From NCBI GenBank assembly GCA_030295235.1, contig AP026162.1:1426001-1490000 (forward strand): a stretch of 64,000 nt of DNA. Direction: 5' to 3'. Shown here one piece after another: positions 6,483-56,850 of the stretch. This stretch comes from Fistulifera solaris. Taxonomy: Eukaryota. The notes beneath the pieces are model-generated. The model was not told the DNA's origin and did not search any database. It was given only the letters and a program-made list of their open reading frames with translations. Position 1 is the stretch's first letter, and each line of letters begins with the position of its first letter. The translations under genes were made by a program, and so were the position numbers.

Positions 6483-6660
6483 ACTATAGGTTTATGTGTA
6501 GATTACATTTTCCGCGACTGCAATTCAGTCATGAACTACCTGCTTTGCGAGACGTTTTGCTAGAAGAAAGCCATTCGTTGTGCTAGTTTCGCTAGCTAAG
6601 ATAGTACTGTACCTTCAGCTTCATTACAGCAGGCGAGGCGATTTTCGATGTCGAAATTTC
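6483..6660 (+). repeat. Intergenic element family A, copy 1
   Basis: ACTATAGG..GTGTAG at 6483. Palindrome CGCGACTG-CAATT-CAGTCATG at 6513-6533. Downstream ATTCGTT, CATTACA and GATGTCGAAA are shared with the copies at 25 kb and 56.7 kb. Confidence 0.75.
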
Positions 6661-6896
6661 TAGCGGATTATCATCGGTCATAGTCATGAGTACTTGAAAA
6701 TCTGTCTGTGGAAGCTCCAGAAATTCTGGATACGCACTGTGTTCCTGGTATGTAAAAAGGCCAATAAACTCAGCTGCGTAACGAAAAACGACATTACCTA
6801 GTATATATTGAGCTTATTATTTCATTATCACTTGTCAGAATTTAACTTGAGAATCACAATCAGTAAAGGAATATAAAAGAAGGAATTCTTTGAGCC

Positions 6897-7448
6897 ATGT
6901 CTACTGAAGCAGAGCTTACAGAGCCGCATTCGATGAGCCAAATACTACCCATCCGCATGACTTCACGAGTCGTTCGAGGATACGGACGAGGATCCAAAGA
7001 GCTGGGTATTCCTACGGCCAATTTAGATACCGAACAACTGCAATTTTCCAAAGATGTGACTTTAGAAGAGTTTCCTACCGGCATTTATTGGGGAGTTTCG
7101 AGAATTGCCGACCAATCGGTCTACACCGCGGCCGTCTCGGTCGGCTACAATCCCACGTACGGCAACGACACGAAAACCATCGAACCACACCTCATTGCTC
7201 CCGAACAAGATCCGCGAAGACACGCAAGCTCTACAGGGGAAACGCTGATGAAGGATTTTTACGATCAGACGTGTCGTTTATCGCTGATTGGATACATGCG
7301 ACCGGAATTGCCCTTCGAAGGATTAGACAAGTTGATTGAAGCAATCAAAGGAGACATTGCGAAGGCGGTGCAATTGGGAAATGAAGTCAATGATACTTTG
7401 ATGACAGAAAAGGATTGGGTGCAGTCGGATGAGCCAGCGCGTGTGTAG
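6897..7448 (+). CDS. RFK: Riboflavin kinase
   Basis: Motifs VVRGYGRGSKELGIPTANL, GIYWG, SVGYNPTY, EPHLI and GYMRPELPF..L..LIEAIKGDI. Confidence 0.95.
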   Translation: MSTEAELTEPHSMSQILPIRMTSRVVRGYGRGSKELGIPTANLDTEQLQFSKDVTLEEFPTGIYWGVSRIADQSVYTAAVSVGYNPTYGNDTKTIEPHLIAPEQDPRRHASSTGETLMKDFYDQTCRLSLIGYMRPELPFEGLDKLIEAIKGDIAKAVQLGNEVNDTLMTEKDWVQSDEPARV

Positions 7449-7595
7449 TTTTGCTATCTTCCTATGTTCCATAACAACGAAAGAGTTTTTTCATTTCAAA
7501 TAAAATTCAACTCTAGTCAATCAGTTATTCTATGATCTAATTATCAGTCGATAATGATGCTACTAAATAGAAAAATGAATACCCCTTTCATCCTC

Positions 7596-8693
7596 CTAAG
7601 CGTAGGACATGCGAAGACGCTTCGGTCTCTGATCTGTCAGAGACAGCGGATCGGCTTGACGAACCATATGACTGCTGGGGACCATGGGCTTGGCTACCGG
7701 AGCCATGGTGATCCGAGACGTCCATTCTACAATGCGAGCATCTTCACCTGCTGTTATGAATGACTGACCACTGAGTGGATGCCAAGCTCGGATGACACCG
7801 ACATGCCCCGCCGTAAACAATTGACGGGCTTGCCAGCGTCCTTCATTGGTGAGATGAAAAATAGCCCCATTCCCCATATTCGACCCCACCGCCATAGCTA
7901 AAGTATTTGTAGGTGCCTCCCAATGCGCATCGATCAAATAGTCGACTTCTTTTCCAACTTGAAGCGACAAGAGTTGCCGCAAATCCCCGTAGTGGTGCAT
8001 ACATGTCCCGGACTTGAGATCCCACAGACTCGCAGTTTCTGATCCGGTCAAGGCATAGGCTCGACTCGAATCACCGCAAAAACCGACTTTGCGAAGTCCG
8101 GCACCAATATTGCATATCGAAACCGAAGCAGCCTCTTCGGTAGGTTGTGTTGTGTCAAAGTAACACAAAAGGCCGTCGTCCGCTCCCGAAGCCAATTGTT
8201 GGCCATTGAAACAGAGCGACGTGATGGGCCCGCGATGCGAATTGACATAGGATCCCAGCGTCGACTGCTGTCGCCAATCAGCAAATATTATCTTCCCTGA
8301 AGCGGTCCCGGTCGCGACAATTGTATCGGAAAAGCCTACTGCGATGGATTGCAACGGCGCGGCGGCAAGGGGTGTGCGCAGGATATCGGATTGCCGCAGA
8401 TCCCATACCGCTAGACATCCATCGTGCTGTGCCATGAATAATATATTTCCATCTTCTGAGTACACCATGTCGTGTGTAGTGGCGTCGGAAGCGCTGCTTT
8501 GCATCAACAAACTCATTCGTTCCCGATCGTACACTTGCACTTGCCCGTTCGAGAGTGAACAAGCAAAGCTGCTATCGGAAACTTGCATATTCAATACCCA
8601 ATCACCATCTCCCGCAAGAGCATTTGAAGTTTGACGAGGTGTCAGCGACGTTACTACCGTTCGGGATGGTCGCAGTAGATTGATGGCGTTCAT
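7596..8693 (-). CDS. WD40-repeat protein (WDR89-like)
   Basis: WD repeats (LAVWDLR, SYVNSHRGPITSLCF, LASGADDGLLCYFD, GHVGVIRAW..FITAGEDARIVEW). First ATG at 8693. Confidence 0.8.
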   Translation of the reverse strand: MNAINLLRPSRTVVTSLTPRQTSNALAGDGDWVLNMQVSDSSFACSLSNGQVQVYDRERMSLLMQSSASDATTHDMVYSEDGNILFMAQHDGCLAVWDLRQSDILRTPLAAAPLQSIAVGFSDTIVATGTASGKIIFADWRQQSTLGSYVNSHRGPITSLCFNGQQLASGADDGLLCYFDTTQPTEEAASVSICNIGAGLRKVGFCGDSSRAYALTGSETASLWDLKSGTCMHHYGDLRQLLSLQVGKEVDYLIDAHWEAPTNTLAMAVGSNMGNGAIFHLTNEGRWQARQLFTAGHVGVIRAWHPLSGQSFITAGEDARIVEWTSRITMAPVAKPMVPSSHMVRQADPLSLTDQRPKRLRMSYA

Positions 8694-10747: not shown

Positions 10748-10881
10748 GAATGTTTTAGACGCTGTTATCTTCTAAGGAAATGATTTATGTGGTCCACTAC
10801 AACAGAATGAACGAGAACGGGTTCTATGTTACTCCGTATTACGTATAGTATTTCTTTGGTGTCGCAAAATCAGGCACAATG

Positions 10882-11410
10882 TCCGGGTTCCCCCTCTGTC
10901 GATAAACTTCCCTACGGGGTCTACTTGGAACTCACGTAGGACATTCGCAGCATTGCATCTGTCGTCTTTTCTTCGTTTGGTGTTCCAAGTAAAATCGATT
11001 CTTACTTCTAAAGCTTTATGAAGGCATATTTAGGAATATTTCAATGAACTTTGTCGCTGTCGGACCCCGGAAAGATGAGGTCGAATTTGAAAAGTACCGG
11101 GTGCTACCTACTAGAAAAAATACGTAGCCGTATTTTTTCTAGCTACCTACATCGATAAAATTCCTACGGGGCCAACGTGCCTTTCACGTAGCCATTCGAA
11201 GCGTCGTATCTTCGCTCTTTTCTACAGTTCTGTTTCGAATTGATTGTAAAGATCGCTTATTAGTACCAATTAGCGATGTTAGTTCAGGGTATTAAGGCAT
11301 TGCAGTCAAACATAATCGGAAAATGGATGATGTTGAAATACAGAATATCCGGGTACCCCCTCTGTCGATAAATTTCCCTACGGGGCCTACGTTAAGGTAC
11401 GTAGACGACG
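10882..11410. repeat. Intergenic element family B, three degenerate tandem copies
   Basis: A 43-nt block at 10882-10924 matches 11348-11390 with 3 mismatches, and a partial copy lies at 11152-11192. Each is followed by CTACGTG-N5-CACGTAG-like inverted repeats. Confidence 0.85.
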
Positions 11411-11570
11411 TCTTGCTGCGTTGAGTTACGCGTTGCATGCAACGAAAAAGCCGCATTGCGTATGACTCTTGATTCCACAATCACACGTTGATTCTTCTAA
11501 CTGAAGCACCTTGTCTTTCTTCGTCATCCATTTGCATCTTTCTTTCTGACATAGTTGAAAGAAATTTTGC

Positions 11571-12005
11571 ATGTCATTTTCTCCAATGCATCAGCGAAAG
11601 GCACGGGGAAGTAATCACAGCAGCAGCGACAGCGACATGTACAAAGGTGGCTACGGCGACATTGAGGGCGGACGAAGAGGCAATCGCAATGGCTTTTCCT
11701 CGAGAGACACCAACACGGGAATCCTCGAACAGCAAAACAATGAACGCATCAATGAGCTTTCCGAGCACGTGGCGCGTCTGAAAGGACTCACGATTGACAT
11801 TGGCGATGAAGTACGACAACAAAACTCGTTACTCGACGGCATGAACGATGGGTTTCAGAATACGCGTGACTTATTGCAAAGTAGTTTAATGAGAATTGGA
11901 ACTATGCTTGAATCGGGTGGCGCAAAGCATATGTGCTACTTGGTTGGTTTCAGTGTGTTTGTCATGGTCTTTTTGTGGTGGCTCATGAAATATCAGTCCT
12001 CATAG
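11571..12005 (+). CDS. BET1: Bet1-like Qc-SNARE
   Basis: SNARE motif LEQQNNERINELSEHVARLKGLTIDIGDEVRQQNSLLDGM and a C-terminal transmembrane helix (HMCYLVGFSVFVMVFLWWL). Confidence 0.88.
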   Translation: MSFSPMHQRKARGSNHSSSDSDMYKGGYGDIEGGRRGNRNGFSSRDTNTGILEQQNNERINELSEHVARLKGLTIDIGDEVRQQNSLLDGMNDGFQNTRDLLQSSLMRIGTMLESGGAKHMCYLVGFSVFVMVFLWWLMKYQSS

Positions 12006-14766: not shown

Positions 14767-15125
14767 TTCAACACCGAAGCAATCACATCGTTTCGGTTTC
14801 GTACCCTTGTTTTGTTTGTCAATAGAATGTTTGTTATCGACTCCCTACGATCTACTGCCTTATTGCTGTTACCAAACTGATTCTTGTATAATCCCCAAAT
14901 TACCCCTTTTATTTATCTATGTTGCCCCGTTGTCCCCCAGTTTCTTAGTTTGAATTTCAAGACCTCGCATGTGTCCGTTATTTCTGAAATTTTACCCCTT
15001 CATACGTATAGCACTCAATGGATCCCCCAATCAACTCGTCATCTCACCATTTCTCCCCCAATGCCCCTATTCTTCTTGAGCGTAAAATACATCCACTTTT
15101 GTTCTTATTTTGTTGTTTGTATTTG

Positions 15126-16143
15126 TTATACCTTTCGATGCAACAATCGTCCCGCACACGCCGTCTCAAGTCGAATGGCAGGTGTCACATCATCCCGATA
15201 CTCGTTGACAACCTCCACCGCGCTGAACAGTCTCGGGTATTCCGTACGCACCAGTACTGGAAACGAAGCCGAACGCTGCCCATCCATGGATGAAAATTGC
15301 GCCTGAATCTCCAATGCTTCCCCCGGTTGAAGACTTTTGATCGACCAAGCAATCGTTCGTTTCATTTCGTCCCAGACACCACCGGATCTCGACAATCTCA
15401 CCGACGCTCCGTCCATGTTTGGCGGAACAGCCATAATGATCATGATTTGGTACAGCGGAAATTGATTGGATGGGTTAGCTCTGATTTTGAATCCAACACG
15501 AGTGTGCTCTCTCGATTGTTGAACTCGGCTTTTGACTAACTGCGCCAGTGGAGACAGAAACGAGTGAGATTGATCCTGGTCATCCTCATTTTGAGTATCA
15601 AGAGTAGCTTACCAGTGGTACAGGTCGTAGTGTTGGTATGCAAAAATATTTGAGTACGATTGTTTCTCGGAAGGGAGATGCTGTTGAACTATTCAATGAT
15701 ATTCTCAGTATTCGGTCGGACAAATGCAGGCCCCGGGACGAGACTCTGTCGGTAATATCACAGCATACATCCTCTTGTTCTTCAATGCGATCGATTTGCC
15801 CCAGTAAATCTCTCAATACGATACAAAAAGGTGCCGACGATGGCCCCATTGCCTGTACATAAATTGTCCCCTCTATGCTCATCTCGCCCTCATTTGAAAC
15901 GTCATCATACCGAGCCGCCAGCTGCTCGTGAATATAGACTTTAACGAGCGGTGTAGACGACGCGTTTGGTTCATTGGTGACAAGCGAACGAAACGCATGT
16001 TCAGTTGCGCGAGCAGTAGATTGATCGGTAGAGAAATCAAACGGGACGCTGTCAAACGACGATGATTCCGGCCTAACCCATGCATCGTCGCCTCGTATGA
16101 AACGGTCGGACGAGCGATCCGACAAGTCTCTGCCGCTTCGCAT
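15126..16143 (-). CDS. Mu-homology-domain (muniscin/stonin-like) protein, 2 exons
   Basis: Motifs VKVYIHEQL..MSIEGTIYV, VLKYFC..LRPVPL|LVKSRV, KIRANPSNQFPL..IMAVPP and GVWDEMKRTIAWSI..LQPGE. In-frame intron at 15612-15540. Confidence 0.72.
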
Positions 16144-16262
16144 GGCATCTATCGGCCAGGATTGATTTGTTTATCAGTAAAAGCAATTTAATTGGGCATT
16201 GATAGACGATCGCAGTCCTATGCATTGTACATTGTCATTGTTGTGGACGACATTGGTATAGT

Positions 16263-16320
16263 ACTATCCTTCAAAATGTACCGGGGCCCGGGGCCGTGAC
16301 TACATTTCAGTCATGAATCT
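16263..16320 (+). repeat. Intergenic element family A, copy 2
   Basis: ACTATCCTTCAAAATG at 16263 and CGTGACTA-CATTT-CAGTCATG at 16295-16315. A second upstream box, ACTATAGTCGCAAAGTG, lies at about 16394. Confidence 0.65.
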
Positions 16321-16641
16321 GGAAAAAGTTCATTAACCTTAATTAGATCAACCCCCACATGCTTCCCCTTATAGATTACAAGGTACACCATCGACTATAG
16401 TCGCAAAGTGGTTCTAAGGTGCTAAGTCCGTTTCATGTCGTTTCGTTAAGTAAAATCCGTAGAATTTTGCAAGGCGTAGTAAGGAAGAAAGTTGAAAACC
16501 AAGGGGAAAAAATGCGTTTCGCGTTTGTTTCATTTTTTGTCTTCATTGATGTGAAATCAAAGTCACCGCGTTGTAGAAGATTCGTTACTTGCGGGTTATT
16601 TGCAAATAGAAGGGACACGGTTGGCTTCGGAGGCCCGCACG

Positions 16642-17813
16642 ATGAATTCACAGCACAAATACTGCTACCTCGACTTTGACTTGGACGACACGCGCAACAA
16701 ACTGGGTCAAGCGGCTGCCTTTTGTCATGCGACGAACCAGCGCTACGGTTTCAGTTCGCCCGACTTGCGACAACTGGGAGGAAGTGAGTTGAAACGGATA
16801 CATGACTATTTGGAAAATGATCACGAGTGGAAGGGAAAATCGATAGCTCTATTGCCGGTAAAAAGTAATCGTATCGTCTTGCTGTTAAAGTGGGATGTTG
16901 CACCTTTGGCTTGTGAAAACTTTCTTGCACTATGCTGTAACGATGAGAAGCAAATTGGGCAATCGGGCAAGCCATTGACGTATCGCAATTCAACAGTTCA
17001 TCGTGTTATTCCGAAGTTTGTCGTTCAGGGAGGCGATGTAAGTCAGTTCGATGTGAAGGTCCAGCCTCGCACTCATTTCTTCCTCTAATGGCGACGATTA
17101 AATAGTTCGTTTTCGGAAACGGTAGCGGAGGAGAGTCTATATTCAATGGCAAGAAGTTCAAAGATGAACGACCTGGTTTGCTGCTGAAACACGATCGTCG
17201 CGGAATCCTTAGTATGGGAAATAGTGGAAAGAACAGCAACTCGTCCCAGTTCTTTATTACCTTCGATAAGGCGCCACAGTGCGATGGGAAACATGTTGTT
17301 TTTGGCGAAGTAGTTAGCGGATGGGATGTTTTGGATGCTCTAGAAAGCACGGGAATGCCCAATACGGAAACCCCACAAGTATCTATCAGAATAACCGATT
17401 GTGGTGCTTGGACTCCTTTGCAAACCCCTGGTGCCGGTTACTGGTACGATCAACCCGACGAGGAGAGCTACTCAGGTATTTCCCCTGTCTTTATGGTGCG
17501 ACCTCGAGTGGCCGTTTTGGCCCCGAATGACCACGTGGCGGACAAATTCAAAGTAGCCCTCGAACCAGTATGCACTGTTGTTACGTTTACAGCAATCGAC
17601 ATCATTAATGCATGGCTTCAGAGCTATGCAATAGATCTTCTTGTCGTGGCTCCGGCTTGTGAAACGGAAGCGCACCAAATTACGCTACCCTCGGATTGGG
17701 AAATCACCAGAGAACAAGTCATTCTCGTTTCCAAACCGATGGACGCACTACAGAATATACGATTTAACTCATGGCTAGTCTCCAGGAACTGGCCACTCGA
17801 TGGTGCAATATAG
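16642..17813 (+). CDS. Cyclophilin-type peptidyl-prolyl isomerase with N-terminal insertion and C-terminal extension; 2 exons
   Basis: [62 protein letters not shown] and [10 protein letters not shown]. Intron at 17038-17105. Confidence 0.93.
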
Positions 17814-17883: not shown

Positions 17884-20800
17884 TCAACTGGAAGTAAACT
17901 CGAACAATTTTGGTAACTGGGCAGCTAGCGTCCACACACTTTTCTCCAGAGGGTTACCACGAAGACACAAGCGCTCCAATTCCGTGCAATATAGAAATGA
18001 CGGCGGAAGCTCGCGGAGCTTATTGTCTTCAGCAGAAAACAGCGACATGACCGGTAGATCCACGGTGTTAGGAAGACGGACCAGATTGTTCTTACTTACG
18101 CACATTGACTTCAAGGTTTTTATAAGAAACGCTGACTGAGGAATTTCTTCTAGATCGTTCTCGGAAAGATCAAGGCTCTAAATGCCGCAAAGATTTCAAT
18201 TGTGAGCACGGATACAATCAATGAGCAAAGAATTAATTCGCGTACCTCGAGGCGAGAAAAGTAGATTCCAAACTGATCTGGCAGCAACTTCAAACCAGTT
18301 CTCGTCAGAGAAAGCTTGTTAATCGATGTGCCAATGACAAGGAGAGAATGAGGTATTGGGGACATAACTCCGGAACATGGACCTCGTGATCCTTGACTGA
18401 CAAGCTTGCGATCAGAAATTTTGAAGTCCATCGGGGGCAAATTATCTTCAACCAGTCGCTCATGAATACTCTGGAACATCAACCCGATTTCCTCGCTTGG
18501 TTCATCTATCAAGGCGGATGTCAGATTCCAATCATTTGCAAGAACAACATGGTGTGGGCGAACACCATAGTTTGTAACCAGTAATGCGAGTAGCTCGTGT
18601 AGCTCTGCCACATCCAGAGGGAGCTGGTAAACCCCTTTCAATGCGACTATTCGATCAGCTGGCTTCGGCAGGGAAGCCTCAAGTTGTAGCAACTGGGACC
18701 ACAAAATTTCAGAAACGATTGACAAAGGGGACGGCACGTAACCTCCTAGATATTTCTCGAGTCTGACAACGACGCGATCATAAGCGTTAAGCGTAGTACC
18801 AAGGGCAACATTCGCCGCCAGAACAGGGGACAATAAGAACTCCAAGGATGGAAAAAAGGAGCAAGATTTTTGAATAGAAAACAGGAGCTTGTCAATTGCC
18901 ACCCAAACGTCAAGTATCTGATTGCGTACATTCTCAATTTGTGAATCCATTTTCAATTCGATTGCGACGGCCTCAATGGTTCCCATAACTAGTTGCGATA
19001 TCAGCATGACGCCCATGAGAAGGACATCCTTGGTATGTTGGCCTAATCGTATACTTCGCTCGACGAACTGCTCGAACCAGCGCAATGACGGCTTCACGGC
19101 ATCCGCAACAAGCTTGCTTGGGGGCCTGATTTTTAATACATCTCTTCGAAGTTGCCGGGTTTTCGCCATGTGACGGATGAACTGAGGTAGATATTCCTCC
19201 AAAGATACACTCTGTCGAGCGTCGTTTTCCATCGCAACAGGATAAAAGTAGATAGGTAGTCGGTCTTGTGGTTGATCACAATCAATCTCATCGATATGAG
19301 TCACCTCCCTTTCCAGCGCGGTGAGTGTACGAAGGACAGCTGCAATGCTTTCATCGCCGATCCTCGGCATCACAAATTCAAGAAGACAAGAAACAACAGC
19401 AAGGTGCTCTTGGGTCCGATACGCTATCTGAAAAACACTATCTCCTGGTTCTGTTTCCAAAGCAAAGGCCCTCTGTTCAAGCACATTTATTATACGGACG
19501 ATCATGGACGAAAACCCCACAGTGGATTCTTCAAGCGACGGTCTTTCTTTCTCGAGATTTTCACTCCATTCAGAGGAGAAATCGAGTATAGCTCGTGACA
19601 CGTCAAATCTGCCTGCATGGATACAAAGCCTTACCACTTTAGTTAGTCGGACTAGAAACAGCAAGACTTCTATTGGAGTCTTGACGCGTTCAAGCTCTAT
19701 AAATATAGACTCTTGTTGCTCCTCCAGATAAAAATTACCGCCTTCTAGAAGCTTTTTGAAGGATACATTATCTTTCGTTGTTTGCTCCATCTGCTTCCGT
19801 GAGAGCCATGATTTGTCTGCCTTATTTATAACGTTATACGTTTCAAGCACGGGCAACAGCGCATAGTCTTCAAACCCTGAGTTCGCATCGGAGCTGCTCA
19901 GACCCAGTTCTGGAAGAAGTATAAAATCTTCTTCAAACGTTTTATCCGCCAGCGGTGTTGGCGACTTAGCAGCAGGTCCCTTTCGATGTTTCTCTTGGAA
20001 GTTCGGGATCGCTGGGAGTTGAAGCTCGTCTTCTGCTTCCTCTACCAGTGATAAAAGGAGATGCGGAAGTGGGAGAAACTCTCGGGGGAGTACTCGACCG
20101 AAGCTTCTTGGTTGAAGATGCTGATATGCACAATACTCGTCTTGACATTCGCCAGATATTTCATACGGACAAATGGGAATGTAGGGATCAACTCGATCAC
20201 TGAAAGGCTTCAGTGAGCTGTTGGAAATTCGGTCAGAGTTGGCGGGCCGTGTTTCACTTCTCCATATATCGCTTATAATGAGCCGCACATCTAAACACGT
20301 GTTCCACATAGATTCTCGCCGCCACCGCCAACCGTTCGCTGCTTTGTCAACGGCTAGCGTTTCCATCGCGTTGATATGAAGAAAAGTCTTAATTTTCTCT
20401 TTTGTAAATAGGACTGAGCCGAAGGTCGCAAGTCGGAAAATCGGATCCCTTTTCGACAGCCACAAAGCACGCAGTCTATCGAGTGCAATGTCGGCGAGGT
20501 GAAGAGTATGTCCCGATCGATGTTGATTAATGGTATTTTGGGCTTCCTGGACTGAACTCGAAGAAGAATATGAAAATGTTTTGTCTGTGTCACGGTTCAA
20601 AGAAGCCGTGGATTCACTTCCGGCAAGCTCAACAAGATCATCTAAAGAGATCTCATCTGTCGTGCTAAGCATTTGAAGACGTTGCTCTGCCTTCGCCAAC
20701 AGCTTCGTCATTTGTTGTTGTAACTTTCGTTTCCGTCCCAACGTTAGAAAAAGCTCCTTCTTTTCGCCACTAATCGGACTACACGGTCTTCTTTTTCCCG

Positions 20801-22544
20801 AAGGTCGGCGACTGCTGTATCTTGTTCCTGTTGCAACAATTTGCGCCGATCTGCAATGTTTTTCAACATGGCTTCCAACAGGAAAATTCTTTCCTCCAAA
20901 CGCAAAGCGTCTACTTCAGATTCTAGCAACCCGACAGTTGACGCATCCTCATTTGTGTGCGCCACGCTCTGTGATCTTCCTGATGGTGAACCAACTTCGC
21001 TAGCTATTTCTGGTATGCTGATTTTCTCAGGTATATTTGAATCGGACGCGTGAACAGCCTTTTCTTCGACGACGGCGTCATCTTGAACCTCTGCCATCGA
21101 TTTCGAGTTAGAAAGATTTTCTTGCGTCAAAATAGAAGATCTGGTATCAGATTCGTCAATCTGTCGTTGAGTTTGTCCCGACATTGTTACTTTCTTTAGA
21201 TCATCGATCAAAGCCTGTACGACTTGCGCGTACCTTGGATGCCCATCAATGATGCACGCTGCAATTTCGCCTGGTTGCGCCTCAAGAAATTTGGTGAAGG
21301 ATGGTGCTTTGCGATAAAGTACAAAAGGGATCTCTTTCTTCACACAATCTCTCAGTATAGGAATTACAGGGTTCTTGGCGACTCGCTGTGGCCTTAAAGC
21401 TAACACGAGGCGAGGCCGGCCCTGTGTCACCAACTCACGAACTTTGTCAATACCAACTACCAGTGCGGACTGGCTATCACCACTGCTGTCATGATTGGCG
21501 TTTGCAGATAGAGGTGTAGGACCTAGGGCGTGTATCGTTTTTATTATCGTTGGTAGCGCCGGTGGTGTAACAGCTCGGGTTCGTAGAACGTCAGCCAAGA
21601 CAATATTCTGGATGCCCTCAAGTTTATATGTATCAGCTTTTCTGACTTTTTTTCAAGCAAATGACTAAAACTCGGGATGCATTTTTCTTTCCGAGTTTGT
21701 CCAAGTTCTCTTCCACAAAAGGGTTGAAAACGTTGGGGGGAGCACTCACCAGGGGCACAGTGTGAGAACGGCACAGAGTTTCAATATGCGCAAGGAGAAA
21801 CGATTGCTCGCTTTTACTGCCTGTACTTTTACGGCAAACAACCAATTCCGTATCGATTAGTATTAGCCGTAGCCAGTCATCCATCGCATCACTATCACGA
21901 TCATCGAAACAAACCAGCTGATACTCGGGAGCTTCTTCCGCCAAGTACTTTTTGAGCAGCGCTACCCAGAGCGGGTGAACATTAGCTGGGGTTACTTCTT
22001 CATAATTCCTTTGCACAGCTTGGGCTGTCTTGTTTGCGTTCTGCAGCGCGGGAATCTTCTGCGGCGTCTTATTTACTTTCACGCCCGGGGAAGCTTTCTG
22101 CGACATCTGCTTTTTCTCACCTTTTGACAGCTTCTTTCCTTTCTTACTGGGGGTAAGTTTCTGTGGCGTCTGGTTTATTTTCTTCTGCGATGGGGATTTC
22201 AGCGGCTGTTTATTTCCTTTCTTACTTGGAGGAACTTTCTGCGGCGTCTGGCGTGCTTTCTTACTTTGGGAAATCTGCAGTGTCTGGCTTGCTTTCTTAC
22301 TTGGAGGAGGTTTTTGCGGAGTCTGGTTTGCTTTCTTTTGTGGGGGAACTTTCAGCGGCGAGTCGACCGTCAAATCAACAACATCACCAGTTTTCTCGCG
22401 GTCCACTTCTGCTCGTTTCCTCTTCTTACTATTCGTATTTCCGCTTGCTGTCATATCGACAATGTTCTTTGCTTTATTGTTTGTGGCATCGTTATTCATC
22501 TTGATATCCTTTTTATGAATCACGACCACATTTGCATCTACCAC
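17884..22544 (-). CDS. About 1530-aa protein: basic TPQK repeats, two L7Ae-like domains, coiled coil, ZFC3H1/Red1-type C3H1 zinc finger, C-terminal LRRs
   Basis: ORFs 22544-21633, 21598-20744 and 20741-18150 join at A-run indels (21647-21653 and 20761-20764). Intron 18245-18178 leads into an LRR exon (SLDLSENDLEEIP, DNKLRELP, LRGNPL). Zinc finger reads DPYIPICPYEISGECQDEYCAYQH. Confidence 0.7.
22057..22350 (-). repeat. Coding 39-bp (13-aa) tandem repeat, SKKxNQTPQKxPP
   Basis: About 7 degenerate units within the N-terminal region of the 17884-22544 gene. Confidence 0.8.
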
Positions 22545-22728
22545 ATGATGAGTTATAGTCTAATAGTGCGATGTGAATGTGAATGCAAATAATAAGAGCG
22601 GGACGAACGACGAGTAGAGATTTACATAGTAAAGTAGTACCGGGTACTGTCGCCTCCTACATTTGAGCCCACAGTTTTTAAAAATTTTAAAGCTAAGGTG
22701 TTAACACATCAGCCCTTGGCCATTGTCT

Positions 22729-24795
22729 CTACACTTGTTCATCTATTCTAAGCAATGACTTGGTGAGACGCTCTAGATCAGCGCCATCTTCATTATTCCG
22801 TAAAATACAGGCCACGTGCCCATCGGGGCGGATGACAATTGAATATGGCTTTCTTCCGTCTTCAAGAAATGAAAACGGCGATGTCCGCCTAGCCCTGGCT
22901 TCACGCACAATCAATTTTCCTGAGCTAGCAACTGCCTTTTCATCGTCAACCAAGTGTACAATTTCAATAGGTAGTTGAACTGCCTCGCCAAGTCGTTCGG
23001 CAATTTGATCAGCCAATCCCCAATTTCGATTATCCATCCCAACTGTCAGCAGCACACAGCAAGGATGCTCAGTGCGCTTTAACTGCGCTGGAAGATCGGT
23101 CGAACTCAACAATTTCTCAGAGGCAGCGTCTACAAATTGTAATCCATCGTACTTTTCCTTCCCGGAAATCGCTTCGAGTAAAACGTGGGGAAGTAGATAT
23201 CCTTCCTGCAGTCTTGGAGAGCTCGCCCACGAATCCGTGTGCTGCCTCGTACGTTTGTCGCTCGTCTCGGAATAACCAAAGCCGATCTCAAAACTAGGAA
23301 ACAGAAGCGGAAGACCGGCCCCCGATTTTAGCGTTTTTCTCAGTGAGGATACAATATGCCGAGTATACGGCGACTCGAACCGCAACCCAGAAAGCGGAAG
23401 CATCACCATCTTTAAACAAGATAGAAACATAGACCGCTTTGTAGCTCTAGACATTGGCATGTAATCCATCATGCGAAGAGTCAATTTAGCGTGATCTTCG
23501 TCCAAGTAGAATGATCGAATGACTTTCACAAGACGTTTGTAGTTTCGAATAGAAAGGGCAGCATTTTGTTTTGCAATAGGCTGGCGCTCATCATGATACG
23601 ATTTCAGAAGATTTCTTATGACCCCAGAATTACTCATCTGCCGGTTGTGAAACGCGTGAGCGATTTTCCAAGCCAGATTGTGCGCATCCTGTAGACCCGT
23701 ATTCATCCCAAACCCTCCAGCAGGAGGAAATACATGTGCAGCATCACCAACCAGGGCCATACCATCTTCTGTATAGTAACGATCGGCGACTTGCGCACTC
23801 ATAACCCAAGAGTTTGACGATACGATCTCCCATTCCTTCACTTTTTCACCAAAGATGGCTTGAATGGTTTTGTCGAGTCGACCGTTCGAGTAGTCTTCTT
23901 GAAACGATTGATAAGGATGAAAGTACGGAATCTGGATAATATACTCTCCCACCGAGTGACACACAACCATAGATAAGGCTTCTGGTGAAAAAGTGGAGTA
24001 CAACATGGCATGATTCCCATTCTCATGGAGGCGAGCGGCGTCCTCCGGCGGTAGACGAACATGCACATTCACTAGGTGCTGTAGAGCTTCATCACCCCGG
24101 AAATCAATACCCTTAGTGCGTCGTATTTTGGAGGCAGAGCCATCGGCTGCGACAAGGAGATCGGTTGATATTCTTTGTCCGTCCGACGTCTCAACAATAT
24201 GGCGGGTGTCACCCGACGATGTAATCTTTTCAACTGCAGTTCCGTAAAGCAATGTCGACTCGGGGTGTAAACAAGCATGATCGTACAGTATTTTTCCAAA
24301 GGTATGCTGAGCCAGATGCCCAACCGAGCAGACTGAAACGTCTGCATTGCGCGTGAAACGTTTGACGTCGTCGCGTAGGACACCGTTGGCGTCACAGTTT
24401 GCTTGTAAAGGTCTGTCTAAAGGATGAATGACCTCAGCCAGCGGCGTTGTTTGCGACATATCGGTAACAAATCGAAATGATTTCCATTGATCAACTGGGG
24501 GCATTTCAAGGAGCACGCGCTTGTACGCGCTGGGCAGGCAATGTTTGAGGATCTCCATGGTTCGAGTATTGAGGAAGTGTGCCTGAGGATGCCGGAAACG
24601 TGTTTCAACACATTGTGCCTCAAAAACGAAATTGGGAACCTTGTAGTTGCAGGATAATAAATTTGAGAGCATTAAACCCGACGGACCTCCACCGACAATA
24701 ACAACTGGGCTGTGCGAGTCGCATGGCGGAAAAGAGGAAAAGCAATGCGTGGCCTTTCGCGTTCGACGCACCCGAAATATTCCGCGAGACAACAT
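22729..24795 (-). CDS. FAD-dependent aromatic monooxygenase (FAD_binding_3, dichlorophenol hydroxylase-like), probable mitochondrial presequence
   Basis: Motifs VVIVGGGPSG, HPQAHFLNTRTMEI, LVAADG, LVGDAAHVFPPAGGFGMNTGLQDAHNLAWK and C-terminal IRPDGHVA. Arg-rich N-terminus. Confidence 0.9.
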   Translation of the reverse strand: MLSRGIFRVRRTRKATHCFSSFPPCDSHSPVVIVGGGPSGLMLSNLLSCNYKVPNFVFEAQCVETRFRHPQAHFLNTRTMEILKHCLPSAYKRVLLEMPPVDQWKSFRFVTDMSQTTPLAEVIHPLDRPLQANCDANGVLRDDVKRFTRNADVSVCSVGHLAQHTFGKILYDHACLHPESTLLYGTAVEKITSSGDTRHIVETSDGQRISTDLLVAADGSASKIRRTKGIDFRGDEALQHLVNVHVRLPPEDAARLHENGNHAMLYSTFSPEALSMVVCHSVGEYIIQIPYFHPYQSFQEDYSNGRLDKTIQAIFGEKVKEWEIVSSNSWVMSAQVADRYYTEDGMALVGDAAHVFPPAGGFGMNTGLQDAHNLAWKIAHAFHNRQMSNSGVIRNLLKSYHDERQPIAKQNAALSIRNYKRLVKVIRSFYLDEDHAKLTLRMMDYMPMSRATKRSMFLSCLKMVMLPLSGLRFESPYTRHIVSSLRKTLKSGAGLPLLFPSFEIGFGYSETSDKRTRQHTDSWASSPRLQEGYLLPHVLLEAISGKEKYDGLQFVDAASEKLLSSTDLPAQLKRTEHPCCVLLTVGMDNRNWGLADQIAERLGEAVQLPIEIVHLVDDEKAVASSGKLIVREARARRTSPFSFLEDGRKPYSIVIRPDGHVACILRNNEDGADLERLTKSLLRIDEQV

Positions 24796-25014
24796 AATGC
24801 CTCCGTGAGCGCCTAGAAGACGGCTATATCATGGAACCTTAAATTGTCAATGAAAAAAGCTAGAATAGCGTCAAGTTAGATCCATTTGAATAGATAGACC
24901 TGTCATTTTCATTTTTTTGTCGACGATCCTACATTCTCATTCTGTCGGACCACGTGTCATGTCGTTTCGGTTCCGCGTGGGGACCGCCGAGTACTCTAAT
25001 ACATCAGAATTTCA

Positions 25015-25470
25015 GTCTGCTTTAAAGAAGGGCAACGTATCGACTATGGTCCAGAGTGTGAAATCTACTTATTCACGACTGGGATTCAGTCATGAATCAA
25101 TAGTCTTTCGAGCGACTTCGCCGCCTACAATTCATTCGTTCGCCAATTATTATTCTTGAGCTAAATCTGTCGTCCATGCATTTAATAAAATAGTCTTTTA
25201 GCAGCTTGTCAATGTCGAAAAGCCCGCGAAACTGCGAAAAGCCGTTTGCCGTATTTCACTATGGAGCAAAGTGTTGTCCGTTTCTCGCCACGACTGCACT
25301 TCAGTCATGAATCAGTATTTTTTTATAGCGACAATGTTTAGTCTAGTCTAGGCTATCTACAATTCGTTCGTTCGCCAATTTTCTCAACTCTATCTGTCGT
25401 TGTTGCAAGCAAATACTCTTAGTAGCATTTGCATTACACGCCTCGATATTTTTACGTCGAAAACCCTATG
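25015..25470 (+). repeat. Intergenic element family A, tandem dimer (copies 3-4, period 215 bp)
   Basis: Palindromes at 25074-25094 and 25289-25309. Both are followed by CTACAATTCRTTCGTTCGCCAATT...ATCTGTCGT...GTCGAAAA. Confidence 0.9.
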
Positions 25471-25678
25471 ATTCACCTGTTCTACATTCACTTTCCGCAT
25501 CATAAGGCGCTTGCCCTAGCACTAGAGCTGACCCAGCAAGGTCTCAGATTAAAAAGTTTATGAGAAAATGAAAAATAGCAATGGAAAAATCAAATTAGGA
25601 TTTAGTATTAGGGTTATTCATGATTGTTTATTAACAGCGCAACGTTTGAGAAATAAACTTAAATCGTAACGTAACGAT

Positions 25679-36714: not shown

Positions 36715-36972
36715 CGATAAGATCCCTTTGTACTTTTGTCGTTTCAATAAAACGAGCAAGCATTTCTGTATCCCTAATTGTCGACGACGTCTATCCGTCA
36801 GGAATGTTGTCATTGCCCTACCTGAACGCTTTTGTCGATCGTTGTGAGCGTCCAGATGCCAACTGTAGCTCGTCATGTTGAAAATCAAACTTGAATTTTA
36901 ACGCAAATCAACAACATGGAACTCCTGAGCAAAAATTGTTGTGGCTCGAATCATCGTGAGCTTCATAGTTTT

Positions 36973-37260
36973 ACTGTGGTCTGTAGGCCCACTTAACCAA
37001 GACTGAACTTCAGTCATGAGGCTTTAACGCTTCTTTTGTGCGAGCTGTATACGTTGTTGCCTTCTGCGTATTGTGTGTAATTTCCATGTATTGATAGATA
37101 TGGCTTTGACATAGGGGTTACGTCTTACGTCTGCCTCAAATTCCGATTGCAGTCGACGATGCGCTTGAATCATCCTGGTCTTCATTATTTTTTTCTTTTC
37201 TTTTACTGTGGCCCAAACTGTTAGTTAAAGGAGCCATGACTAATTTCAGTCATGAGACCT
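36973..37260 (+). repeat. Intergenic element family A, tandem dimer (copies 5-6, period about 236 bp)
   Basis: ACTGTGG boxes at 36973 and 37205. Palindromes CAAGACTG-AACTT-CAGTCATG at 36998-37018 and CATGACTA-ATTT-CAGTCATG at 37235-37254. Confidence 0.75.
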
Positions 37261-37384
37261 AACCCTTATTATTTCGAAACGTTTCTCCGTTATTGTTCGA
37301 GTGTTCGCCAAGACGGAGAGAAAAGAAAATAAATTGTTGATGCCCTATATTGTTATTTGTTATTTCACAAACGAACGCTTAACC

Positions 37385-40839: not shown

Positions 40840-41037
40840 GATCTCGAAAACCTAGGACCGAGTGATTTGATTATTCAAAAGGAGAGAGCCTTGTTTTACA
40901 ATAGCTTCACAAATTTTCTTGCCGATTATAAAAACGTGTCTTATGTTTGATGTTGTTGATTATTATTGTTTGTGAGCCGACGACGATCCGAATGCGGGCC
41001 TCTCATTTTTGTTGGGATTTTTTGTACCTGGTAGCGG

Positions 41038-41245
41038 TTTGTTACGTCTCCAGAAAATGTGGGGGTGCGGTTTGTTTTACGTGTCCAGAAAATGTGGGGT
41101 TTTTTTGTTTTTTACTTGTCCAGAAAATGTGGGCGTGCAGTTTGTTACGTCTCCAGAAAATGTGGGGTGCGGTTTTTCACGTTTCCAGAAAATGTGGGGA
41201 AGCCTTTTTAACGTTTCCAGAATTAACTTGTCCTGAAAATCTGGC
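41038..41245. repeat. Minisatellite, 32-35 bp unit with core TCCAGAAAATGTGGG
   Basis: Cores at 41049, 41084, 41119, 41152 and 41184, with degenerate copies at 41216 and 41231. Located in the divergent promoter between TLDc and DPH5. Confidence 0.92.
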
Positions 41246-49158: not shown

Positions 49159-49654
49159 GGCGATATGTTCGTGTCAAAAGCGGGATAAATGCAGCGTTGC
49201 GTCGGCTCTCTTTTGTCTTAAACTCGATATTAATAACTACTAGAAGTCCACAAATAATAATGATAAAAACTACTACCCGTATTGTGTTTACGCGATGTTC
49301 ACATTCTCGGTGTTTCTCTTCCACCCAATGAATGCATCTGTTCTGTTCATCTGTCCAACTTCATTCATTCGTTCAATGCAAGCCACAAAGCTGCTCGCAC
49401 CTCCTTCGCTTCCGAAGTCGTATCGGTTTCGCAAGGAAATCGCAACAATCGACCTACCAGGTAACCTATAACCTTACCGAGACTTCGTATTGAATTACTC
49501 CGTACGATTTATGCATAAAGAATCGAATGAATCATAAACGTCGAGAACGCTGATACAGTGTAGACTAATCACTCTTAGTGAGCCATCGATGATTCAGTTT
49601 AGTCGAACCTTTACCCCGGCACAGGATAATAATTAGAGCGATTATAACAACTCA

Positions 49655-49940
49655 CGGGACTGAATTTGTTGAGTCGGAGGAAAGGTCGCCTACACTTCAT
49701 GCAATAGTAAAAAAGTGAGCTTACCAGGTACGAAATCCAATCGACGAAGTCTAATTACAGTAACTCAGTCTGGAAGTAAGATAATTACCAACGATAAAAA
49801 ATGTGGTAATTTTGCAACATCCATGGGCCCAAAAGTGCCCTTTAAGAATGTAGTGTGGCATTGAAATCTAGCATTTTATTGATCCGGGACTGAATATCGA
49901 TTGAGTCGGAGAAGATAGAACCTACACTTTACGAGATAGT
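49655..49940 (-). repeat. Intergenic element family A, inverted tandem dimer (copies 7-8, period 232 bp)
   Basis: On the minus strand: ACTATTGCATGAAGTGTAG...CCGACTC-AACAAA-TTCAGTCCCG (49708-49655) and ACTATCTCGTAAAGTGTAG...CCGACTC-AATCGATA-TTCAGTCCCG (49940-49885). Both keep the 33-bp spacing from box to GACT. Confidence 0.7.
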
Positions 49941-50073
49941 TCATCTCGATAAACAAAATACTCCGTACTCCGTGGTCAAAACGCATTGAAGCGCATGTTG
50001 AATGGAAATTCAAAAGTATAAAACCAAATCATCACTAAAACCAATCAAAATAATTAAAGAATCTATAATAAGC

Positions 50074-51874: not shown

Positions 51875-52731
51875 GGTTCCTTTGTTACTCCGTATTCAAC
51901 AAGGTTATCTATTAATTATTGTGCTTACTGTATTATTTTTGTTTTTCAAAAATGGCAGGGGAAATAAAACTTTTGGCCCGCGATCATGAACATGGCATTA
52001 ACTTTAACCCTTTAGAGAACGCATATTATTATTCGATGCCGGATGCCGGATGCTGATTGCTGATTGGCTAGTTTGAAGATAGGTCATATCTTAACAGCTG
52101 ATAATGTACTCATCACACGTATTTCTGCTACTTTTTGATTTACAATGACTTGTTTGCGCTACTGTCTTAACACGAACGACAATCTAACGATGTCCAAATC
52201 ACAGTTCTCCACTATACTAAGTTAACCGTCACAAACTGTTAACTGTATAGCTTCAGTAGTAAAAATGACGCATGACGTACGAAATCTACACCAATAGGTA
52301 AAGTGATAAGCCCCCACCAACCTTGTATACGGTTAATTTGTAGATTACTTTTTTATACTCGTTGTTTGTCGCGCTGATTTTTTTGCGGTACGTTTTTTAC
52401 GTAGCCCAACCTCCCACTTGTGACGACGGCCGACGGCTTGATGATCTGGACCAGAAAATGAGTTTCACCGTTTATCTTCCTCGCGGTGAAGCTCTGTCAA
52501 GGTTGCGTTGCTGTTGCTTCATTGCTGCTCCTGGAATTCAAGCAGTTAAAAAAAAAAAAAAAAAAATAAGCACAACAGATTCTCAAGTATTGCTTTGAAC
52601 AAAAGCGCTGCCGCGAGATTTCTTGAAAGCTTGCCTGAATTCTTCTTTTGGGTAAGTCGGAGTTTAATTCAAAAAGAGGCCGAACTCCGGTGGAGAAGTA
52701 GAGCAATCGACATCAGTAATTTGCGGTCTTT

Positions 52732-55548: not shown

Positions 55549-55670
55549 AAATAGACGGTATAAATATTTACCTGTAAATATGCTTATAATCATTTTTGCA
55601 CACTCTTCTTGTGTATTATCTTTAGTACAGCAACAAGATGGCACTCGAAAATGAAGCAAATGCTTACAAC

Positions 55671-56481
55671 TCACAGGGGACTTATAGCAAGAACATCCGC
55701 CATTTCCGCCATGATGCAGTCCACAGATGCGAGCGCACCCATTCCCACCCTCACCACACGCGAGTACCTTAGAAGTCGGCTCAATAATGCGAATGGAATT
55801 CTTTTCACCTTCTTGACGAGACTCTATCGACACGAAGCTTTGAATCGTTTGTAAATGTTGAAATGTGAGGGGATGCTGCCACATGGCCGTGTTCATGGCG
55901 GGTGCAAGAAGAAGAGGTTTAGCCGGTCTCGTGGAATGATACCCAAAGTCCCACGCCCGCGCCACACAAGACAGTGTATCGTCGCAAAAGCCCTGCGCCA
56001 GTTTCGCCAATGTGTGGGCTGATAAGGGTGCAATGAGGAAAATGTCGGCCCAGTCTCGTAGGTCAATATGTAGAACTGGGTCCCCTAACCGGTTCCATCC
56101 TTTCCACTCCTCTTCGGAGGCTTGTTGAGTGGAGAAATCGTCACTTTGTCAGACGTACAGTTCAAGTCGACGCCATCTTTCGGTCAGTCGACGAAGATAC
56201 GTACAGTAAAGCTGAATTGGGGCTCCTTTAGTCGATGACTCCGCCGAATCTGATGTCTGAACCCCGGTGATATAGTCCTGACACAAATCCCAATTTTCCT
56301 TGTCGTATTCTTCAGCTTTCTCCCAAAAATTCGATCCACCAGCACTCAACAAAACACGAACGTGAGCATTAAACTCACGGACGAGTCGCACTGCAATTTC
56401 GGGCGCTTTAACGGCTGCGACAGACCCCGTCACACCAAGTAGTATTTGCGGTCTTTGTTTTCGTTTACTTAATTCCTCCAT
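55671..56481 (-). CDS. PPCDC: Phosphopantothenoylcysteine decarboxylase (HAL3-like flavoprotein), 2 exons
   Basis: ILLGVTGSVAAVK, DPVLHIDLRDWAD, APLSAHTLAKLAQG.CD, PAMNTAMW and LACGEVGMGA (after removing one G at about 55749). Intron at 56204-56121. Confidence 0.93.
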
Positions 56482-56607
56482 TCGAGACGTCGAGAGATGG
56501 TTCTAGTTGTGATGAAAGGGCACATTGAAATGATTGGAAATGATCGGGAAATGTTCTGGGAAAATCTGTCAGTCATAAGCAGGCTACCGCAGATCCTCAG
56601 ATTTTCC

Positions 56608-56850
56608 GTCTGCTTCAAATTGAGCGACAACCTCCTCCACTATAGTCCAAAGTGTTGTCACCGCAATTTACCCACGACTGCGATTCAGTCATGAATCGAA
56701 TTTCTTTCTAGATACAATCAAAGAATCAAAGTACAATAGGTCTAAGTTCGTTCGCAGCAATGTGTTATTATTGCAGTGCAATAATGTCTTAGAGCTTAGA
56801 GGCGCTTGCATTATTACACGCCTTGTTATATTTTTGGGTCGAGAAGCCTG
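56608..56850 (+). repeat. Intergenic element family A, copy 9
   Basis: GTCTGCTTCAAA at 56608, ACTATAGTCCAAAGTGTTGTC at 56639 and CACGACTG-CGATT-CAGTCATG at 56673-56693. Downstream GTTCGTTCGC, TCTTAG and TTACACGCCT..ATATTTTT..GTCGA match 25.3-25.46 kb. Confidence 0.85.

Follow-up and report, generated by a model that had tools for sequence, protein, structure and literature searches.

Budding-yeast replication origins are built from an ACS and B elements, and the upstream-motif mini-genes of the C. elegans 21U-RNAs and the Dictyostelium class I RNAs have upstream motifs comparable to the cassette described below. Helitrons and Helentrons start with 5' TC and carry a hairpin about 10–12 nt before a CTRR 3' end, and dispersed euchromatic short satellite arrays, such as the 1.688 repeats of Drosophila, are a comparable kind of repeat. 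HomolD and HomolE constitute a promoter architecture of Schizosaccharomyces pombe, as described in the accessible part of PMC5769750. According to the accessible part of PMC10253590, the HomolD octamer CAGTCAC(A/G) is bound by Rrn7, replaces the TATA box, lies 39–52 bp before the start site and works in either orientation, including the inverted one. Very little is understood of what specifies promoters, boundaries or origins in diatoms. In the collection of papers searched, a query on diatom core promoters returned nothing resembling the module reported here. Further searches of the same collection returned nothing on diatom snRNA promoter elements or on diatom non-autonomous elements like it, and no paper for any of three literal 12-mers.

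In a 64-kb window from the diatom Fistulifera solaris (the window is the whole stretch of 64,000 nucleotides that was analysed), nine copies of a cassette of about 60 bp, here called the head, were found at six intergenic loci, three of which are tandem pairs. The head consists of four short boxes at set distances: Box I (ACTATRG), 10 bp further Box II (AAAGTGT), then about 20 variable bp, Box III (CRYGACTG), 3 bp and Box IV (TTCAGTCATGA), with Boxes III and IV forming a small palindrome. The exact sequence GACTG-N5-CAGTC occurs five times in the window against 0.07 expected, and none of 100 shuffles attained five matches. The more relaxed form GACT..AGTCATGA is present in seven plus-strand copies (6516, 16298, 25077, 25292, 37001, 37238 and 56676), and on the minus strand there are two variants, whose GACT starts at 49675 and 49907, with GACTC arms and a longer gap. 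The palindromes that a first, sequence-only reading of this DNA had listed are therefore real features. That reading had also placed an ACTRT box 28–37 bp, mostly 33–35 bp, before GACT, and the distances measured in all nine copies agree with this (33, 35, 34, 34, 28, 33, 37, 33 and 33 bp; 33–35 bp in seven of the nine). Box II lies 10 bp past Box I in all six copies in which a pattern scan placed it unambiguously, and ACTATRG-N4-AAGTG with at most one mismatch has five matches in the window against 0.32 expected. Six copies have a gap of 7 between GACT and AGTC; in the other three it is 6, 10 and 12. The palindrome is followed by ATGA(A/G) in the seven plus-strand copies and by CCCG in the two minus-strand copies. 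The three tandem dimers that had been noticed were all recovered, with periods of 215, 237 and 232 bp (previously given as 215, 236 and 232). The heads, and the longer units that contain some of them, are as follows.

6431..6719, plus strand: full unit with leader, head, body of about 150 bp, T-run and GTCGAAA tail box (unit HMM E 2.5e-55, by construction; alignment)
6471..6538, plus strand: head with Boxes I–IV, Box II weak (TTTATGTGT) (nhmmer E 3.6e-14)
16253..16324, plus strand: head with the arm variant CGTGACTA, without the shared body (nhmmer E 6.1e-12)
16393..16412, plus strand: partial second head with Boxes I and II (ACTATAGTCGCAAAGTG) and no palindrome (local alignment to the heads, p 0–0.05 against 300 shuffles)
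25001..25257, plus strand: full unit 1 of a tandem pair, head at 25034–25105 (head and unit HMMs, alignment)
25233..25501, plus strand: full unit 2 of the pair, head at 25246–25318, 215 bp past unit 1 (head and unit HMMs)
36956..37028, plus strand: head with the Box I variant ACTGTGG and arm CAAGACTG (nhmmer E 1.3e-12)
37197..37263, plus strand: head with Box I ACTGTGG and perfect 7-bp arms CATGACT/AGTCATG, 237 bp past its partner (nhmmer E 1.9e-12)
49643..49721, minus strand: head variant with arm GACTC, gap 10 and CCCG after AGTC (nhmmer E 1.7e-11)
49875..49952, minus strand: head variant with arm GACTC and gap 12, 232 bp from its partner (nhmmer E 2e-11)
56595..56874, plus strand: full unit, head at 56631–56701 (head and unit HMMs)

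Because the head HMM was built from the same nine copies, their recovery by nhmmer in the window, at E values of 1.8e-15 to 2e-11, is by construction. The next matches have E values of 0.014 and worse and are mostly the same palindromes read on the opposite strand; the remaining ones are isolated and weak (E 0.6 and worse), and the best E value in ten shuffled windows was 0.12. Possible relics that the sequence-only reading had seen at 52211–52350 did not hold up: they gave no HMM match, and their local-alignment scores lay within those of shuffles (p 0.07–0.79). The same applied to our own by-eye 'degenerate second heads' at 6650–6730 and 56860–56950 (p 0.28–0.87, no HMM match), and an idea that the gene-proximal head is better kept was dropped, being built on these rejected heads and relics. 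The partial head at 16393–16412 is an addition to the earlier list. A pattern scan of public metagenome contigs gave 10 loci, which were chance matches without the upstream boxes; prokaryote genomes gave one chance locus, also without them, and viral contigs gave none. Look-ups in a sequence index and in relatives returned no look-alike stretches.

The conservation of the head is position-specific. At least eight of the nine copies agree in 22 of about 85 columns of the nine-head alignment, and the spacers vary without restraint; all nine copies agree in GACT and TTCAGTC. The tandem partners all retain the boxes despite low local-alignment identity (65% over 181 nt at 25 kb, 65% over 97 nt at 37 kb and 78% over 58 nt at 49.8 kb), and they have local variants in common, namely ACTGTGG at 37 kb and GACTC..CCCG at 49.8 kb. 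Boxes retained in diverged partners, together with these common variants, suggest that an old duplication took place locally and that the boxes were retained afterwards. Outside the heads, single boxes are not enriched in the window (CAGTCAYR 10 against 7.8 expected, ACTATRG 8 against 18, AAAGTGT 9 against 9.7), and so they do not form a promoter vocabulary in general use in this genome. Like a mobile element, the cassette moves only in one piece. The constancy of the arms and of the box spacing does mark a constrained site, as had been proposed, and binding by a protein accounts for it best. The four-box module may be an old dispersed repeat in which selection maintains the head as a double-stranded protein-binding module at promoters; we prefer this explanation tentatively, with somewhat less than even confidence.

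All six loci lie in spacers with at least one gene 5' end, each gene start being provisionally set at the first ATG on the basis of ORFs and Pfam, with introns left unmodelled. The loci at 6.5, 16.3 and 49.8 kb lie between divergent genes. The earlier statement that orientation does not track the neighbouring gene stands insofar as no one orientation rule suits all six loci, and needs amendment in that the Box-I side faces an ATG 62–265 bp away in five of the six and, on the hairpin side, there is a facing co-oriented ATG at 85–497 bp in four of the six. No gene was found on the Box-I side of the 37-kb locus, nor near the hairpin side of the 25- and 56.7-kb loci, and the genes flanking the six loci have no function in common. 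The unrelated flanking genes, the unenriched single boxes and the lack of a uniform orientation rule also speak against a promoter module.

The gaps between the six loci are 7.0–12.7 kb (CV 0.206, n=6 loci), as the described range of 7–13 kb implied. This spacing is more even than random, with P = 0.004 for uniform placement and P = 0.006 for random picks among 32 intergenic spacers, in a post hoc test on six loci of one window that was chosen because the pattern had already been seen. Even spacing is the sole hint that the heads might serve chromosome organisation, as a replication origin or as a boundary or loading site (TFIIIC-type extra sites, insulators) bound by a multi-subunit complex and placed at intervals along the chromosome, and we give this explanation little credence. 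It would suit a modular multi-box site in intergenic DNA, often between divergent genes, with pairs at a nucleosome-scale distance of 215–237 bp. Like budding-yeast origins, the heads are modular, oriented, multi-box, intergenic and fairly evenly spaced; unlike them, they occur about once per 10 kb and are unrelated in sequence. The motifs of Fistulifera solaris proposed as centromere/ARS signals in the accessible part of 10.1101/2021.11.10.468027 have 0 matches in the window with up to three mismatches. The more specific proposal, that the heads are diatom origins or boundary/loading sites at intervals of about 10 kb, promoter-side and spread on a mobile unit of about 230 bp, is hardly probable; if true, it would be one of few examples, beyond the budding yeasts, of origins or boundaries specified by sequence.

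Four copies (6516, 25077, 25292 and 56676) share a downstream body of about 150–170 bp with 65–73% identity, and the homology of about 150 bp that had been reported for the 25.1-, 25.3-, 56.7- and 6.5-kb copies was confirmed by alignment and the unit HMM. A GTCGARAA box is conserved about 125–155 bp past the palindrome. In three of the four full units it is preceded at 2–5 nt by a run of T4–T5, and so it is in a further genomic copy; in the fourth unit (25077) a T4 lies about 20 nt before the box. Copy number was estimated from contigs of sequencing runs whose nature was judged by contig behaviour: X1 and X2 behaved as DNA, and X3 and X4 as RNA, with poly(A) ends and GT..AG joints. Immediately ahead of the palindrome, at 25284, the summed contig depth is 2821 in X1 and 707 in X2, against single-copy depths of 15–22 and 6–17, respectively. 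The entire 666-bp bin averages a depth of only 329, from which the excess is read as confined to about one head length. The head of the unit at 25233..25501 has the most look-alikes in the DNA runs, which suggest 70–150 or more genomic look-alikes of this best head (25246–25318). Only the head, not the body, is high-copy at 90% identity, and contigs from other genomic copies join the hairpin and body through differing linkers.

These copies bring in a selfish reading, in which the module is a non-autonomous mobile element (SINE-, MITE- or Helitron-like) whose head is the signal for its own transcription or mobilisation, source copies having a common head with different bodies and promoter regions being favoured landing sites. 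An entire unit of about 215–280 bp common to four loci and other genomic copies, the many copies, a cassette found only as a block, the unrelated neighbouring genes and the presence of some copies in RNA contigs would all agree with it. Short tandem arrays, body subfamilies and promoter-side preference are likewise features of non-autonomous elements. The termini that define such elements were not found. An inverted-repeat scan of the six loci revealed no inverted pair at the unit ends that recurs between loci; no CTRR was seen at a constant distance after the palindrome, and homology continues for about 150 bp past it in four copies. The earlier suggestion of a MITE or rolling-circle element thus found no counterpart in these searches. 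In the SINE tail test there was no A-tail at the unit ends, among only four diverged full copies, and no simple-repeat tail was seen. No tRNA, 5S or 7SL likeness was found; ARAGORN detected 0 tRNA genes in the window, and Rfam searched over two loci gave no tRNA-like match even at E up to 10. In addition, the boxes are intact in nine of nine heads and the spacers and bodies are scrambled, which contradicts the even decay expected of inserted copies. High copy number of the head alone and spacing more even than random also argue against this reading, and we regard it as unlikely. If the module were merely a selfish repeat, its box-limited conservation would still need explaining.

The head could also be an external promoter, snRNA-type or similar, driving many short non-coding units with variable bodies, the tandem pairs being mini-genes. 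It resembles snRNA-type promoters in having several boxes over about 50–60 bp with rigid spacing, before unrelated sequence and independent of neighbouring genes. The fixed geometry of the upstream cassette of about 55 bp, the separate head of every unit in a tandem pair, the T4–T5 run with the GTCGARAA box in three of four full units and the low RNA contig cover across 25098–25763 are consistent with this. These contigs give no starts, ends or levels, and the bins at 15108–17771 and 19104–25097, without RNA contig cover, are not informative on expression. Against an RNA gene, the bodies fold no better than shuffles (z = -0.03 and -0.59) and have no structure in common; an alignment fold retains only a 7-pair hairpin with 0 compensatory pairs, and Rfam 15 gave 0 matches at gathering score in the 64 kb and chance-level ones only at E up to 10. 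The structured ncRNA family that had been considered a candidate is disfavoured by the same results. By Rfam, no known snRNA follows any head, and the copy number is far higher than that of snRNA genes. T-runs of at least four are misplaced, with a T7 about 8 nt past the palindrome (25292) and a T4 about 20–25 nt past it (6516, 37001), and this inconsistency makes a 150-nt Pol III product unlikely. The human PSE consensus, TCACCNTNA(G/C)NNNAA(A/T)(G/A)N in the accessible part of PMC5493778, is matched at 7 of 11 specified positions by the best copy and not by the others; its starting TC is not conserved among the heads, and the match to the 3' box from the same part of that source is weak. Taken with these points, the promoter of an RNA gene appears improbable. 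Two X4 RNA contigs from other copies include the palindrome (loose ends at 6535 and 25288), which does not fit a site lying always before the start site, as a promoter-side docking site would. Further candidates were rejected: tRNA-type A and B boxes formed from Boxes I/II and III/IV (poor by-eye fit, no Rfam or ARAGORN support), a short peptide from the Box IV ATG (by eye, frames stop after 3–27 codons and differ between copies) and a long-range stem of CTTTCGAG with GTCGAAAAG closing the body, which the alignment fold did not retain.

Recognition of the palindrome by shape, as an extruded hairpin (a cruciform, single-stranded DNA or an RNA stem-loop), was weighed with the same alignment and appears highly improbable. 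The arms are conserved and the loop varies, and gaps of 6, 7, 10 and 12 are better tolerated by a loop than by a duplex dimer site. Each of the two copies that lack the inner G-C pair (GACTA) has an additional T-A pair on the outside, which holds RNA stability at -7.4 and -8.4 kcal/mol. Set against this, none of the seven pairs is changed on both sides, four pairs are invariant, and the observed share of paired cells is attained in 58 of 500 shuffles. The stems are short (-1.6 to -4.8 kcal/mol as DNA; -2.5 and -4.4 for the minus-strand RNAs), the TT that ends the loop is invariant in sequence in nine of nine copies, and the GACTC arms break the fifth pair uncompensated. The arm gaps of 10 and 12 in the minus-strand copies would be intolerable for a rigid dimer on duplex DNA and are also a difficulty for the protein-binding explanation.

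The module probably serves as a docking site for protein, of an undescribed kind, in gene control or in the organisation of the chromosome, and is probably neither an RNA gene nor an active jumping element. Its anatomy, its box-limited conservation, its many look-alikes, its adjacency to gene starts and the lack of RNA-structure and transposon hallmarks are observed; protein binding, a transcriptional function and spread by some mobility are what we infer. The composite site would be recognised on double-stranded DNA, its four boxes covering about 60 bp. It would ride on an old repeat unit of about 215–250 bp whose copies reached many promoter-side spacers, frequently in tandem pairs, and purifying selection may since have kept only the box positions. 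The most likely job of such a site would be transcription initiation or promoter organisation. Boxes I, II and IV start at 0, 10 and about 43 bp, roughly whole helical turns, and so could share one helix face. By extrapolation from the density in the window, hundreds to thousands of promoter-side spacers may contain the cassette. With four invariant boxes, it is a defined 60-bp molecular probe in a species used for biotechnology, and a portable TATA-less or bidirectional promoter core or insulator, if it is truly one, would be a practical part for diatom engineering.

Under this docking-site explanation, Boxes III and IV would be two inverted, HomolD-like octamers of the CAGTCA type, and a second factor would attach at Boxes I and II. 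As far as the accessible parts of the HomolD sources go, the likeness lies in a CAGTCA-type octamer that has another box upstream of it at a short, constant distance. Unlike HomolD, the diatom octamers face each other 5 bp apart in a 60-bp cassette that spreads as a block, their neighbours are not ribosomal-protein genes, position 7 is T and not C, and the organism belongs to another phylum. The likeness amounts to a match of 6–7 bases and could be due to chance. Box IV (CAGTCATG) agrees with CAGTCAC(A/G) at seven of eight positions in seven of the nine copies. Box III agrees with the inverse octamer at 5–7 of eight positions, the copy at 16298 (CGTGACTA) at seven. Two more inverted octamers, CGTGACTG at 6423–6430 and TGTGACTG at 6447–6454, lie between the 6.5-kb head and the YCF48 gene.

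The palindrome family described in the sequence-only reading was borne out by pattern scans of the window. GACTG-N5-CAGTC occurred five times against 0.07 expected, far above chance; GACT..AGTCATGA occurred seven times on the plus strand, and the minus strand carries two palindrome variants, near 49.7 and 49.9 kb. When the nine 80-bp heads, i.e., the cassettes of Boxes I–IV, were made into a profile and searched against the window, exactly these nine came back, by construction, with E values from 1.8e-15 to 2e-11. The next matches (E 0.014 and worse) were mostly opposite-strand readings of the palindromes, and the few that remained were isolated and weak (E 0.6 and worse); the best E value from ten shuffled windows was 0.12. 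The relics that had been suggested at 52.2 kb were recovered neither by this profile search nor by local alignment compared with shuffles. Apparent degenerate heads at 6.69 and 56.88 kb were dropped, as profile and alignment against shuffles did not support them.

Box I (ACTATRG) lies 28–37 bp, mostly 33–35 bp, upstream of the GACT, and Box II (AAAGTGT) follows 10 bp after Box I in the six copies placed unambiguously by pattern scan. Boxes III and IV are CRYGACTG and TTCAGTCATGA(ATC), and the gap from GACT to AGTC is 7 in six of the nine copies and 6, 10 and 12 in the other three. The heads, named by the start of GACT, lie at six loci, for which genes were mapped from ORFs and Pfam matches with the first ATG taken as a guess of the start codon.

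Loci of the head and their gene neighbours
6.5 kb: head 6516 (+); YCF48 gene (−), ATG 6218; other side, riboflavin kinase gene (+), ATG 6897
16.3 kb: head 16298 (+); unnamed ORF (−), ATG 16143; other side, cyclophilin gene (+), ATG 16513
25 kb: heads 25077 and 25292 (+); FAD monooxygenase gene (−), ATG 24795; other side, 3′ end of PPR gene, poly(A) site 25584
37 kb: heads 37001 and 37238 (+); no gene found; other side, UFD1/UBX-like gene (+), ATG 37340 or 37386
49.8 kb: heads 49675 and 49907 (−); NatA auxiliary subunit gene (−), probable ATG 49158; other side, LYR protein gene (+), ATG 50002
56.7 kb: head 56676 (+); PPC-decarboxylase-type flavoprotein gene (−), ATG 56481; other side, no close gene found

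The key feature is the contrast between boxes and spacers within each copy. Of about 85 head columns, 22 were identical in at least eight of the nine copies, while the intervening spacers varied freely and the bodies, the shared stretches 3′ of the palindrome, were near saturation in the alignment of full units. Conservation limited to the boxes is not produced by an even decay of dead insertions; either every genomic copy is selected at the boxes, or the source elements are about as numerous as the copies. Tandem pairs were found at three loci, with periods of 215, 237 and 232 bp, and a fourth, at 16.3 kb, carries a partial second head of Boxes I and II only. Partners share variants (ACTGTGG at 37 kb; GACTC with CCCG at 49.8 kb), and therefore arose by local duplication or are subfamily pairs; even so, the identity of their local alignments was only 65% at the 25- and 37-kb loci and 78% at 49.8 kb. 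The 13-mer TCATGTCGTTTCG is identical at 16433–16445, 3′ of the partial head, and at 24957–24969, about 85 bp upstream of the 25077 head; with up to two mismatches it gave four matches against 2.67 expected, so that its recurrence beside two family loci may be chance.

Four copies (6516, 25077, 25292 and 56676) are full units of about 260–290 bp, sharing a leader, the head, a body of about 150 bp with blocks including TTCGTTCGCC and TTACACGCC, a T-run and a GTCGARAA tail box, with just 65–73% pairwise identity. Single boxes were not enriched in the window outside the heads, and the cassette therefore dispersed as one block, not through box-by-box evolution. Such travel as a block, and the dispersal of the whole unit, would suit a selfish mobile element, which we consider somewhat unlikely; no inverted repeats recurring at the unit ends, no A-tail and no CTRR-type end 3′ of the palindrome were seen.

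Our preferred reading, at somewhat less than even probability, is that the head is a protein-binding module on duplex DNA with a role in the initiation of transcription or in organising promoters. Boxes III and IV are two inverted CAGTCA-type octamers, and Boxes I, II and IV start at 0, 10 and about 43 bp, roughly whole helical turns, as would fit a complex occupying a single face of the helix. Box IV agrees with seven of the eight positions of CAGTCAC(A/G), the HomolD core-promoter box of fission yeast, in seven of the nine copies. According to PMC10253590, HomolD replaces the TATA box, lies 39–52 bp upstream of the start site and functions inverted; the likeness counts as a lead, not as membership. 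Between the YCF48 gene and the 6.5-kb head there are two further octamers with a spacing of 24 bp, CGTGACTG (6423–6430) and TGTGACTG (6447–6454); both are in inverted orientation, and the latter is the exact inverted HomolD sequence given in that paper. A predicted 5′ gene end adjoins all six loci, against about three quarters of spacers expected, which is only a trend; three loci lie between divergent genes. From the first-ATG guesses, an ATG lies 62–265 bp off on the Box-I side at five of the six loci, and a co-oriented ATG 85–497 bp off on the hairpin side at four. The neighbouring genes had no function in common. No printed description of a similar module was found in the literature searched.

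The T-run and tail box, together with an snRNA-like layout, could instead indicate a promoter of short non-coding units, but the match to the PSE consensus given in PMC5493778 is poor, and we regard this as quite unlikely. T-runs shortly 3′ of the palindrome are inconsistent (in the 25292 copy, a T7 begins about 8 nt after it), and therefore a Pol III product of about 150 nt is disfavoured. ARAGORN found no tRNA in the window, Rfam gave no match there at gathering score, and relaxing the cutoff to E 10 for two loci brought up chance-level matches only. Folding of the bodies was at the level of shuffles (z −0.03 and −0.59), and alignment folds retained nothing except the short hairpin. Recognition of this hairpin by its shape seems very improbable: as DNA the hairpins reach merely −1.6 to −4.8 kcal/mol, covariation over all nine copies gave four invariant pairs and none changed on both sides, and the hairpin's share of paired cells was reached by 58 of 500 shuffles.

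The spacing noted in the sequence-only reading was indeed more regular than random placement, with gaps of 9.8, 8.8, 11.9, 12.7 and 7.0 kb (CV 0.206) and P values of 0.004 when compared with uniform placement and 0.006 when compared with loci drawn at random from 32 spacers, both post hoc on six loci in a window picked for the pattern. A replication origin or boundary site, for which this spacing is the sole support, we likewise regard as quite unlikely. A Fistulifera solaris preprint (10.1101/2021.11.10.468027) proposes three centromere/ARS consensus motifs; as given there, they are absent from the window and have the 8-mer CGACTGAA in common with Boxes III and IV. Two of them, TTGACATTCGACTG and CAGTCGAATRTCAA, share 14 overlapping bases in reverse-complement orientation, and therefore may represent a single dispersed repeat taken from the two strands.

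Pattern scans of public contig collections gave chance matches only and no further family copies. Four public sequencing runs were viewed as contigs, which do not resolve RNA start positions; X1 and X2, covering every bin, behaved as DNA, and X3 and X4, with GT..AG joints and poly(A) ends, as RNA. Five bases upstream of the 25292 palindrome, at position 25284, the summed contig depth was 2821 in X1 and 707 in X2, against about 15–22 and 6–17 for single-copy contigs; there are therefore on the order of 70–150 copy-equivalents elsewhere, at least 90% alike over that short stretch. The 666-bp bin around 25284 had a mean summed depth of only 329, and we read the excess as confined to about one head length; the body is therefore not high-copy at that identity. 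In some contigs the hairpin from one copy in the window is connected, via different linkers, to the body from a different copy, and therefore full units exist elsewhere too. The palindrome is also present in two X4 contigs that derive from other loci, with loose ends at 6535 and 25288, and therefore some copies are transcribed.

A separate high-copy repeat at 10875–11400 (summed depth in bin 11112–11777, 868 in X1 and 915 in X2) has numerous loose contig ends at 11340–11392 and is flanked by 50-nt direct repeats, 90% alike, at 10875–10924 and 11341–11390; a transposable element, or the terminal repeats of one, is its probable identity. The spacer that separates two divergent genes, for a TLDc protein (−) and a tetrapyrrole methylase (+), holds a tandem array at 41037–41211 of five roughly 34-bp units with the core TCCAGAAAATGTGGG. 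Just past the 6.5-kb unit, at 6704–6743, lies a sequence 63% like it (CTCCAGAAATTCTGGA, a GAAnnTTC-type palindrome), and the two may belong to a second family of promoter-side repeats. An ORF lacking a Pfam match (21636–22559, −) contains, at 22054–22355, tandem repeats of about 39 and 75–78 nt. The ORF at 59022–61658 (878 aa, also without a Pfam match) has repeats inside and after it, and its predicted product is a repetitive protein; a 300-nt repeat, 97% alike, lies at 59087–59386 and 60215–60514, and repeats of 132 nt and about 200 nt lie at 61754–62059 and 62482–62846, respectively. A 64-nt repeat, 94% alike, occurs in non-coding DNA at 58342–58405 and, 4.9 kb away, at 63262–63325.
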